Shown here one piece after another: positions 43,580 to 51,752 of a stretch of 64,000 nt of DNA; position 1 is the first letter of the stretch, and each line of letters begins with the position of its first letter. Where the stretch lies: NCBI RefSeq assembly GCF_988242995.1, contig NZ_OZ547043.1. One strand, written 5' to 3'. The position numbers and the translations under genes are program-made. The notes below the pieces were generated by a model, which saw nothing but the letters and a program-made list of their open reading frames with translations, had not been told where the DNA came from and ran no database searches.

Positions 43580-43640
43580 TTTTTATTTCTCCCTGTCTTA
43601 ATTATTAAAATAGTGTAACGCGATTATGTGGTTATGGGGG

Positions 43641-43657
43641 TAAACATTAAATAAACC
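43641..43657 (-). promoter_or_regulatory. PhoP box of the autoregulated phoPQ promoter
   Basis: minus-strand GGTTTATTTAATGTTTA (hexamer direct repeat with 5-nt spacer) about 60 bp upstream of the phoP ATG. Confidence 0.8.
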
Positions 43658-48255: not shown

Positions 48256-49506
48256 ATGGAAAGTAAAGTAGTTGTTCCGGCACAAGGCAAGAAGATCACC
48301 CTGCAAAACGGCAAACTCAACGTTCCTGAAAATCCGATTATCCCTTACATTGAAGGTGATGGAATCGGTGTAGATGTAACCCCAGCCATGCTGAAAGTGG
48401 TCGACGCTGCAGTCGAGAAAGCCTATAAAGGCGAGCGTAAAATCTCCTGGATGGAAATTTACACCGGTGAAAAATCCACACAGGTTTACGGTCAGGATGT
48501 CTGGCTGCCTGCTGAAACCCTTGATCTGATTCGTGAATATCGCGTTGCCATTAAAGGCCCTCTGACCACTCCGGTTGGTGGCGGTATTCGTTCTCTGAAC
48601 GTTGCCCTGCGCCAGGAACTGGATCTCTACATCTGCCTGCGTCCGGTACGTTACTATCAGGGCACCCCAAGCCCGGTTAAACACCCTGAACTGACCGATA
48701 TGGTTATCTTCCGTGAAAACTCGGAAGACATTTATGCGGGTATCGAATGGAAAGCAGACTCTGCCGACGCTGAGAAAGTGATTAAATTCCTGCGTGAAGA
48801 GATGGGCGTGAAGAAAATTCGCTTCCCGGAACATTGCGGCATCGGTATTAAGCCGTGTTCTGAAGAAGGTACCAAACGTCTGGTTCGTGCAGCGATCGAA
48901 TACGCAATTGCTAACGATCGTGACTCTGTGACCCTGGTGCACAAAGGCAACATCATGAAGTTCACCGAAGGCGCGTTTAAAGACTGGGGCTACCAGCTGG
49001 CGCGTGAAGAGTTTGGCGGTGAACTGATCGACGGCGGCCCGTGGCTGAAAGTTAAAAACCCGAATACCGGCAAAGAGATCGTCATTAAAGATGTGATTGC
49101 TGATGCATTCCTGCAACAGATCCTGCTGCGTCCGGCTGAATATGATGTTATCGCCTGTATGAACCTGAACGGTGACTACATTTCTGACGCTCTGGCTGCA
49201 CAGGTCGGCGGTATCGGTATCGCCCCAGGCGCAAACATCGGTGACGAATGCGCCCTGTTTGAAGCCACCCACGGTACTGCGCCGAAATATGCCGGTCAGG
49301 ACAAAGTTAATCCTGGCTCTATTATTCTCTCCGCTGAGATGATGCTGCGCCATATGGGCTGGACTGAAGCCGCAGACCTGATTGTTAAAGGTATGGAAGG
49401 CGCAATCAACGCCAAGACCGTAACCTATGACTTCGAACGTCTGATGGAAGGCGCTAAATTGCTGAAATGTAGCGAGTTTGGTGATGCGATCATCAAGAAC
49501 ATGTAA
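48256..49506 (+). CDS. icd: NADP-dependent isocitrate dehydrogenase
   Basis: 416 aa; uninterrupted; C-terminus ...FGDAIIKNM differs slightly from the remembered K-12 e14-derived end. Confidence 0.96.
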
Positions 49507-49529
49507 TCTCTACATGTGTTAAATATTGA

Positions 49530-49560
49530 AACGGGCGTATAACACGCCCGTTGTTTTATT
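49530..49560 (+). terminator. rho-independent terminator of icd
   Basis: hairpin aacgggcgtat-a-acacgcccgtt followed by gttttattt. Confidence 0.7.
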
Positions 49561-49608: not shown

Positions 49609-49932
49609 TTACTTGAGTCCATATGGGCATATTTTTATAATACAACTATTATGTAAACATTTATTTGTTATTTCGCTTTCTCCTGGAGGACACTCTTGAC
49701 TGCTTTTGAGTAAACTCCATAAATCCTTGTTGAATGGTGTGATGTTATAAATAGTAATAGGGTATTCTTTATCCTTAAAGATAATACCAGACTTAACCGG
49801 TGTAAATATACTTCCAGGAGTGAGAAATATAGTAGGTTGATACCAGATGATCATTTTCATATCACCCCATATGGCTGAAAAAGATATACCGCATGTAGGT
49901 TGAATTACCGTGTCAATTACTATCCACTTCAT
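49609..49932 (-). CDS. iraM: anti-adaptor protein IraM (stabilises RpoS by inhibiting RssB)
   Basis: 107 aa beginning [19 protein letters not shown], matching remembered IraM; AT-rich locus. Confidence 0.75.
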
Positions 49933-50377
49933 TTGTTATGTCTTATCCCACGGTATTTAATATGGTTCATTAGGATGTTTATTTCTTGATTTTGCATATG
50001 AGTATATTACCCCCTCAAAAAACAAATTAATTAAAAATTAAAACCATTGTTTATATAAAACAAAATTTAAAGCAAGAAATCTCAATAGATATTAAACAAA
50101 ATGAGATTTAGTGAAAACATTAAATTATTCACTTCGTTTTAGATTTGTTTAGCTAAAATGTTATACATTCAAATGACTGAACATCCTGTAATTAAAACAT
50201 AGCCTTTATACTACTTTGTGCCAATTTGCTAAACATTATGGTTGGCCTTTTTATATAACGATAATGACGAATATAAGCATGACATGAGAATAAGGTTTCA
50301 ATTTTTTAGTTATATAGGAATGGTTTAACCCATTCCTGGCTAAAATACATATAACCGGATGATGACTAAACCAAAAC

Positions 50378-50426
50378 ACATGTGCGTTAAGTATTGAAAC
50401 GGGCGTATGGCACGCCCGTTGTTTTT
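50378..50426 (+). repeat. second, imperfect copy of the icd 3'-end terminator segment (direct repeat of 49512..49557)
   Basis: acatgtgcgttaagtattgaaacgggcgtatggcacgcccgttgttttt versus acatgtgttaaatattgaaacgggcgtataacacgcccgttgtttt after icd. Confidence 0.8.
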
Positions 50427-51138
50427 GTGCACAGAAAACCCCCAGCTAGGCTGGGGGTTCCGGAAAGCTTTCAGCTTTGAGCCAGTTATTAAAACCCCTT
50501 TTGATTTGTTAAAACACTTTGCGGTCTGGCAACTGCAAGTGTCAAACAAGAAATCAAAAGGGGGTCCCAATGGGGAACGAAAAGAGCTTAGCGCACACCC
50601 GATGGAACTGTAAATATCACATAGTTTTTGCGCCAAAATACCGAAGACAGGTGTTCTACAGAGAGAAGCGTAGAGCAATAGGCAGTATTTTGAGAAAGCT
50701 GTGTGAGTGGAAAAGCGTACGGATTCTGGAAGCTGAATGCTGTGCAGATTATATCCATATGCTTGTGGAGATCCCGCCCAAAATGAGCGTATCCGGCTTT
50801 ATGGGATATCTGAAAGGGAAAAGCAGTCTGATGCTTTACGAGCAGTTTGGTGATTTGAAATTCAAATACAGGAACAGGGAGTTCTGGTGCAGAGGGTACT
50901 ACGTCGATACAGTGGGTAAGAACACGGCGAAGATACAGGATTACATAAAGCACCAGCTTGAAGAGGATAAAATGGGAGAGCAGTTATCGATTCCCTATCC
51001 GGGCAGCCCGTTTACGGGCCGTAAGTAACGAAGTTGGATGCAAATGTCAGATCGTGTGCGCCTGTTAGGGCGCGGCTGGTAAGAGAGCCTTATAGGCGCA
51101 TTTGAAAAACCTCCGGCTATGCCGGAGGATATTTATTT
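50427..51138 (+). mobile_element. IS200-like element (IS200/IS605 family), copy B, about 712 bp
   Basis: sequence-identical to copy A at 21824..22535; same orientation. Confidence 0.88.
50570..51028 (+). CDS. tnpA: IS200/IS605-family Y1 (HUH) transposase TnpA
   Basis: 152 aa; identical translation to the copy-A transposase. Confidence 0.9.
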   Translation: MGNEKSLAHTRWNCKYHIVFAPKYRRQVFYREKRRAIGSILRKLCEWKSVRILEAECCADYIHMLVEIPPKMSVSGFMGYLKGKSSLMLYEQFGDLKFKYRNREFWCRGYYVDTVGKNTAKIQDYIKHQLEEDKMGEQLSIPYPGSPFTGRK

Positions 51139-51347: not shown

Positions 51348-51752
51348 CTAGATTAATGGTTTATTGTTTTCTACATCTTCAATATATAAAAGCGTATTAT
51401 CAATGGCGTAGTAACTGCGTTTGTTATGATTAACATCAGTAACCCACCGGAAAACGCCCGCGTCTGCCAGTGTTGAACAGTATTCCCGAAATGTTGATTT
51501 TCCGCAAATATGAAGCAATGCGGCCTCTTTTATTTTAGCAGGGTTCTTGGTCGTACTAACTTTTAACAGGTTCCTGGTTCCTCTTAATAACAAAACCGTG
51601 TCATCGTGAGTAATAATTCTGATGTTATCCGTAGCCAGATAATAAATGTAATGTGCAATACGGTGATGTTTTAATTCTGAATAAAACCAGGAGAAGTTTT
51701 GCTCTTTTCTCACTTGCTCAAACATCTTTTGAAAAACAACAACCTGATCCAT
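51348..51752 (-). CDS. ycgX: DUF1398-family protein YcgX
   Basis: 134 aa; position between iraM and bluR. Confidence 0.7.
   Translation of the reverse strand: MDQVVVFQKMFEQVRKEQNFSWFYSELKHHRIAHYIYYLATDNIRIITHDDTVLLLRGTRNLLKVSTTKNPAKIKEAALLHICGKSTFREYCSTLADAGVFRWVTDVNHNKRSYYAIDNTLLYIEDVENNKPLI

Follow-up and report, generated by a model that had tools for sequence, protein, structure and literature searches.

Introduction

At PhoP-activated promoters, PhoP~P binds a direct repeat that stands in place of the -35 element and recruits RNA polymerase. The phoP, mgtA, slyB, borD, hemL, mgrB and mgrR promoters share one layout, in which a 17-bp box is followed, after exactly 12 nt, by a -10-type hexamer; at mgrR the box occupies positions -41 to -25 relative to the annotated start of the RNA. 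An arrangement with the box reversed over the -35 position also genuinely exists in E. coli: ompT has a perfect box in reverse orientation (TGTTTA-tattt-TGTTTA, 22.5-22.9 bits with the weight matrix used here), located 11 nt from a -10-like TGTAAT. The K-12 rstA promoter carries three tandem half-sites with 11-bp spacing (TGATGA-aaact-TGTTTA-gaaac-GATTGA; L016, -84 to -57 from the ATG), the third of which is of the xATTGA type, like hexamer 2 of mgrR and of the candidate that we call box A below.

Through iraM, low Mg2+, acid or osmotic upshift sensed by PhoQ/PhoP leads to stabilization of the stress sigma factor RpoS. Salmonella iraP follows the same logic, from PhoP/PhoQ through an anti-adaptor to stabilized RpoS, as far as can be told from PMC5740661 and the title of Tu et al. 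2006, although its protein is unrelated to IraM and its promoter is different. Expression of iraM rises ~20-fold after osmotic upshift in wild-type cells, with no induction when PhoQ is inactive (PMC5740661), mgrB mutants up-regulate iraM (PMC10746255), and the gene is described as induced by Mg2+ starvation via PhoP/PhoQ (PMC10948607). For Shigella flexneri, a comparison between the wild type and a phoPQ deletion mutant produced a table of PhoP-regulated genes in which ycgW is listed (ratio 0.09, P < 0.0001; PMC5775216). This literature agrees with the preliminary description of the locus analyzed here, which had reported that iraM is induced by PhoP under low magnesium; it does so at the level of the gene, leaving the binding site unspecified. 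No iraM transcription start, PhoP footprint or ChIP result was found in the accessible papers and supplements (the primary promoter papers were beyond reach), and a full-text search for the literal sequences of the candidate boxes returned no paper that prints any of them.

Control of iraM by PhoP is already known, and relocating its operator is a refinement only. The identity of the DNA site that carries the signal matters for the design of reporters and for the reading of natural variation. Judging from sequence, we think that the PhoP-box-like motif nearest to iraM is probably not the PhoP operator of the gene, and that one or both of two sites farther upstream, boxes A and B, are better candidates.

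The iraM locus

The DNA analyzed, hereafter the window, is a stretch of 64,000 nt (RefSeq assembly GCF_988242995.1, contig NZ_OZ547043.1). Its closest match is E. coli strain PCN033 (99.1% identity), and it differs from K-12. The genes and elements around iraM are as follows.

48256..49506, + strand: icd (open reading frame and annotation)
49609..49932, - strand: iraM, encoding a 107-aa anti-adaptor of RssB (open reading frame; named iraM in near-identical RefSeq genomes)
50192..50236, - strand: ymgK, a small ORF of 14 aa (MFSKLAQSSIKAMF) 5' of iraM on the same strand (annotation)
start near 50437, tnpA to 51028, + strand: a copy of IS200C (annotation and Rfam)

The ymgK protein has been detected (PMC6001520), and AZT treatment raises ymgK 96-fold and iraM 39-fold (PMC11228462). 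Because AZT induces ymgK along with iraM, an additional start upstream of ymgK, reading through into iraM, is suggested under this treatment. Read-through of this kind would parallel that from the small ORFs preceding iraD. An RNA-seq supplement includes iraM and omits ymgK.

The region upstream of iraM (49933..50345) is 413 bp long and poor in GC (26%; 25-29% GC). Low-GC DNA such as this is the kind bound by H-NS, and H-NS reportedly represses iraM (Battesti et al. 2012). A G-tract in the iraM sense, which reads C5 on the + strand (50010-50014), lies between box A and the motif nearest to the gene. The IS200C copy is absent from K-12 at this position; relative to K-12 it splits ymgK from ymgL, and it lies upstream of box A by more than 330 bp. 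Its 5' RNA, STnc490, spans 50437-50560 on the + strand (Rfam, 144.6 bits), and an Rfam scan for RNA-based explanations matched this IS200 RNA alone, outside the iraM upstream region.

The motif nearest to iraM

The preliminary description had tentatively assigned a PhoP box to a sequence close to the iraM start, by comparison with the box at the phoP promoter in the same window. These sites, and the -10-like hexamer that would serve a proximal promoter, are as follows.

49976..49992, + strand: proximal motif, TGTTTA-tttct-TGATTT (TGTTTA 49976-49981, tttct 49982-49986, TGATTT 49987-49992), a weak PhoP-box look-alike in reverse orientation relative to iraM
49959..49964, - strand: -10-like CATATT, 11 nt downstream of the proximal motif in the iraM sense (hypothetical proximal promoter)
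43641..43657, - strand: PhoP box of the phoP promoter (GGTTTATTTAATGTTTA), the positive control, followed after 12 nt by the -10 element CATAAT (43623..43628)

The proximal motif is present exactly as it had been written. It ends 44 nt from the iraM ATG (49932, - strand), in keeping with the distance of "about 45 bp" originally given, and its reverse orientation is borne out, as it reads on the + strand and iraM on the - strand. The phoP box chosen for comparison is perfect, with 0 mismatches. Hexamer 1 of the proximal motif matches at 6/6 positions and hexamer 2 at 4/6, with the correct spacing; taken alone, the match is not above chance. Relative to KGTTTA-N5-KGTTTA, the motif has two mismatches, both in hexamer 2 (T>A at position 3 and A>T at position 6).

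To score candidate sites, we used a weight matrix built from 11 K-12 promoters (mgtA, phoP, yrbL, slyB, mgrB, borD, ompT, hemL, mgrR, rstA and pmrD), with the training boxes located by consensus, in three training-set variants (8-11 sites) and in one further version without the phoP site. The matrix is small and coarse: once phoP is left out of training, the genuine phoP box comes no higher than eighth in the window. The training sites tolerate 0-3 mismatches. A scan of the iraM upstream region on both strands, which the preliminary description had proposed as a check, went against the proximal motif, which ranked last of five candidates under all three training sets (10-11 bits) and also without phoP, when it scored 8.3 bits and fell outside the top 30 of the window. 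Matches at least as good arose in 46-62% of 2000 dinucleotide shuffles of 49933..50345.

The proximal motif might still be a functional reverse PhoP box over the -35 position, at which PhoP~P would recruit RNA polymerase to a promoter with CATATT as its -10 element, a start near 49952 and a leader of ~20 nt. In K-12 coordinates, the motif falls at about 1212047..1212063 and this start would be at about 1212023. One of its hexamers is perfect, and CATATT follows at 11 nt, as in the reverse arrangement of ompT. A reverse box this good with a -10-like hexamer at 11-13 nt arose in 4.9% of shuffles (9.3% if either orientation was allowed), in a test framed post hoc, with the data already seen. The block from the G-tract to the iraM ATG is identical in the window and K-12, and the reverse boxes upstream of relatives of iraM, described below, raise the prior for reverse sites generally. 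Against this, the score is the lowest of the five and not significant alone, and the pair of changes in TGATTT (A at position 3 together with T at position 6) occurs in 0 of the 22 training half-sites. The core of the motif is also mutated in the majority E. coli allele. The motif would need the arrangement of ompT, a reverse box with an 11-nt gap, but its score is 10-11 bits and it differs from strain to strain. It departs from the canonical promoters in strand, in the length of its gap (11 nt) and in its hexamer 2, which is much weaker, and with mgrR it has the TGTTTA hexamer alone in common. We therefore regard a functional proximal box as improbable. Most likely, the 17-mer at 49976..49992 is a chance or vestigial look-alike in AT-rich DNA that is rich in half-sites, and on sequence grounds the motif nearest to iraM appears the least credible of the candidates.

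Box A

When the iraM upstream region was searched for a box combined with -10 geometry, three candidates emerged: box A, the proximal motif and box B. Box A and its -10-like hexamer are as follows.

50082..50098, - strand: box A, TGTTTA-atatc-TATTGA (TGTTTAATATCTATTGA), direct toward iraM, the best-supported candidate PhoP operator
50064..50069, - strand: -10-like TAAATT, 12 nt downstream of box A, invariant in the 12-sequence alignment

Box A scores 13-14.8 bits, and its hexamer 2 (TATTGA or CATTGA, depending on the allele) has two mismatches to the consensus. With geometry left aside, 6-16% of shuffles contain a match of the quality of box A. When a direct box of that quality had to lie exactly 12 nt from a -10-like hexamer, 0.4% of shuffles had one (P = 0.004); this test, like the one above, was framed after the data had been seen. 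Box A shares with the canonical PhoP promoters (phoP P1, mgtA, slyB, borD, hemL and mgrB) a direct repeat ending 12 nt before the -10 element.

The closest resemblance is to mgrR. In identical register, 17 of 18 bases agree between the mgrR promoter and the K-12 form of box A (GTTTAACATCCATTGAGA): aligned over -40 to -23, mgrR (CGTTTAACATTCATTGA) and K-12 box A (TGTTTAACATCCATTGA) share GTTTAACATxCATTGAGA; the best score among 500 shuffles was about equal to that of this alignment. Both sites have CATTGA as hexamer 2 and a 12-nt gap to the -10 element. They differ in the -10 element itself (TACTGT in mgrR, TAAATT for box A) and in the standing of the start, which is annotated for mgrR and predicted for iraM.

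We favor box A because of its 12-nt geometry, its similarity to mgrR, the conservation of its hexamers and the weakness of the proximal motif, and we give it slightly less than an even chance of being the main PhoP site of iraM. What remains of our belief, after the smaller shares of box B and the proximal motif, goes to several sites acting jointly or to an indirect effect of PhoP. If box A is the main site, PhoP control would be exerted 90-160 bp farther upstream than the proximal motif, through box A and possibly with box B. By analogy with known PhoP-activated promoters, PhoP~P bound to box A would replace the -35 element and recruit RNA polymerase. Transcription would be predicted to start near 50056 and to produce a leader of ~124 nt, inside which the proximal motif would lie as transcribed sequence. 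In K-12, box A occupies 1212150..1212166 and the predicted start is at about 1212125. Folding of this putative 124-nt leader was no better than that of shuffled sequences (z = -0.64).

A 14-nt direct repeat, ATAT(A/T)AAACAAAAT, occurs at 50053-50066 and 50089-50102 with a spacing of 36 nt; it spans hexamer 1 of box A and part of a weaker site, box C.

Box B and the + strand

The highest-scoring PhoP-like match of the region lies farther upstream and faces away from iraM.

50135..50151, + strand: box B, CGTTTT-agatt-TGTTTA (CGTTTTAGATTTGTTTA), reverse relative to iraM and direct on the + strand
50164..50169, + strand: -10-like TACATT, 12 nt downstream of box B, invariant in the alignment

With 13-16.6 bits, box B ranks first or second among the 128,000 positions of the window, and it is invariant in 12/12 aligned sequences. 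These properties raise the alternative that box B is the principal PhoP site, acting in reverse orientation from upstream by class I-type activation or by relief of H-NS silencing, as the boxes of iraL and of the phage-borne homologues may; the "TAATAT/TAACAT" sequence of box A would then belong to the core promoter. The iraL and phage copies have reverse boxes of 18-19 bits located 49 nt upstream of a -10 element, and a region of 25-29% GC suits H-NS. The canonical 12-nt spacing between box B and TACATT points away from iraM, however, the distance from box B to any -10 element in the iraM sense is unlike the iraL arrangement, and the upstream regions of iraM and iraL cannot be aligned. On balance, we consider box B unlikely to be the principal site or one that is required jointly.

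Box B and TACATT together might constitute a hypothetical promoter directed away from iraM, with a predicted start near 50176. On the + strand, ~230 nt downstream of TACATT, lies a terminator-like hairpin that has a T-run (50398-50428; hairpin 50398..50420). The interval from box B to this hairpin could, from its sequence features, encode an unannotated + strand RNA of ~250 nt that is antisense to ymgK. The hairpin near 50398 is also accounted for by a 43-nt repeat that flanks the locus, described below.

Enrichment of PhoP-like sites upstream of iraM

The two remaining candidates are weak.

50057..50073, - strand: box C, GCTTTA-aattt-TGTTTT, a weak PhoP-like match (hexamer 2 is TATTTT in K-12)
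50311..50327, + strand: box D, TATATA-ggaat-GGTTTA, a weak PhoP-like match that varies between strains

Matches with at most two mismatches number 29 in the window versus 16.4 expected. Five of these lie upstream of iraM, beginning at 49976 (+), 50057 (-), 50082 (-), 50135 (+) and 50311 (+); at least one such match is found in 45% of 2000 dinucleotide shuffles of the region. The preliminary description had placed a PhoP site in the interval 49933..50200, and that interval is indeed rich in PhoP-type repeats, but the 17-mer chosen within it is the weakest of the five. A plain sigma-70 scan was uninformative, returning 2 weak sites versus 3.1 expected.

The density of PhoP-like matches speaks for a further alternative, in which PhoP binds weak and strong half-sites additively across 49976..50330, including the proximal motif where it is present. 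Five matrix hits in the region upstream of iraM score at least as high as the proximal motif, versus 0.6-1.0 expected (P <= 0.002), and 49933..50345 contains six perfect (T/G)GTTTA half-sites versus 1.3 expected (P = 0.0015). Composition rich in T-tracts, which dinucleotide shuffles miss, could produce the same enrichment, and boxes C and D as well as the proximal motif differ between strains. We hold additive binding across the cluster to be as improbable as a functional proximal motif.

Variation among strains

To compare alleles, we aligned 12 sequences (those of the window, PCN033 and K-12, one stray contig, and eight additional E. coli genomes selected to span the identity range) and counted exact matches to individual alleles among the 3917 complete genomes that carry the region. 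Four of the 12 sequences have a changed core in the proximal motif and score 2.5-6.9 bits there: TGTTCA-tttct-TGATTT in L006, TGTTCA-tttct-TGACTT in L005 and TGTTCA-tttct-TTATTT in L008 and L012. The motif is intact in K-12-like sequences. Among the 3917 genomes, 1724 have the intact allele (queried as 42 nt) and 2022 (~52%), O157:H7 among them, have the degenerate allele TGTTCA-tttct-TTATTT, so that the majority allele of E. coli is without the proximal motif. In alleles with the degenerate box, CATATT reads TATATT.

Boxes A and B are more stable. In box A, the spacer and the first base of hexamer 2 (T or C) vary and the other hexamer positions are constant among the 12 sequences; the K-12 allele is found exactly in 3199 genomes. 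For box B, which as noted does not vary in the alignment, the K-12 allele is found exactly in 3140 genomes. The conservation of boxes A and B is suggestive; 13.8% of upstream columns vary among the 12 sequences, and (1-0.138)^11 is ~0.2, so it carries modest weight. As conserved sites, A and B would give sharper testable predictions than the proximal motif.

The G-tract is also variable in length, from 3 G to 12 G, including a range from 7 to 12 G inside otherwise near-identical K-12-type alleles. In strain LCP30S3_I3 (L013, 909-1606), all candidate PhoP boxes are displaced by an IS1 copy located 25 bp upstream of the ATG of iraM; this allele is a naturally occurring test case for iraM that is either independent of PhoP or silenced.

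iraL and phage-borne homologues

Homologues of iraM occur on lambdoid and Stx2-converting phages, with similarity limited to the coding region: IraM and IraL share ~59-60% amino-acid identity, and iraM and the phage copies ~71% nucleotide identity. One phage-borne copy follows stx2B at a distance of ~620 bp and is encoded on the other strand. Like iraM, these relatives carry PhoP-type boxes upstream in reverse orientation. A strong box of this kind is located at -112 to -96 from the ATG in E. coli iraL, E. albertii iraL, phage 640R1 and a divergent copy from an Stx2a phage.

L003, 1389-1405: PhoP-type box, reverse
L025, -112..-96 (iraL ATG at 634): PhoP-type box, reverse
L026: PhoP-type box, reverse
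L024, about 1910-1926: PhoP-type box, reverse

The boxes read TGTTTA-ttgtt-TATTTA (19.3 bits) or CGTTTA-ttctt-TGTTTA (18.4 bits), with P <= 0.002 in local shuffles, and both hexamers persist in a lineage in which identity of the upstream DNA is just 62%. The start of the iraL promoter has been mapped by 5' RACE (PMC4045071), and the box lies 49 nt upstream of the -10 element TATACT. The paper that mapped this start makes no mention of PhoP control of iraL (PMC4045071). If real, the strong box of iraL and the Stx2-phage copies would tie prophage-borne anti-adaptors to the Mg2+ sensor of the host.

When the iraM upstream region was compared with those of iraL and the phage copies, shuffled sequences scored higher on average in local alignment, and MAFFT gave 44-46% identity. 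Because these regions cannot be aligned, no iraM box can be called a homologue of the iraL and phage boxes. PhoP control through an upstream box may be an ancestral, phage-borne trait of the IraM/IraL family. The iraL and phage copies would have kept a strong reverse box ~70 bp upstream of the transcription start, and the chromosomal iraM promoter would have been rebuilt as a cluster made up of a direct site (box A), a reverse or divergent one (box B) and the weak proximal motif. K-12-type alleles would retain the proximal box and O157-type alleles would have lost it, such that PhoP control of RpoS stabilization would differ by lineage in strength or mode, and box B might in addition drive a + strand transcript that runs antisense to ymgK as far as the hairpin at 50398..50420. 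We find this scenario as a whole doubtful.

A single scan of representative genomes for cross-species footprinting returned an iraL-type gene of E. albertii and a stray 558-bp contig and nothing else, and iraM appears to be confined to E. coli.

Flanking repeat and neighboring genes

The iraM-ymgK segment is flanked by a 43-nt direct repeat (49515-49557 and 50383-50425, 91% identical), each copy of which carries a hairpin of the icd-terminator type and a T-run. The repeat looks like a duplicated attachment or terminator region of an element integrated at the 3' end of icd; the K-12 counterpart at this position is prophage e14.

The DUF1398 gene ycgX (51348-51752 of the window) lies near iraM, and ybcV, also DUF1398, lies beside borD, whose PhoP box is perfect and canonically spaced, in the K-12 DLP12 prophage (L022, 1601-2595). 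Both pairs, borD/ybcV and iraM/ycgX, appear to represent one type of lambdoid prophage module under PhoP control.
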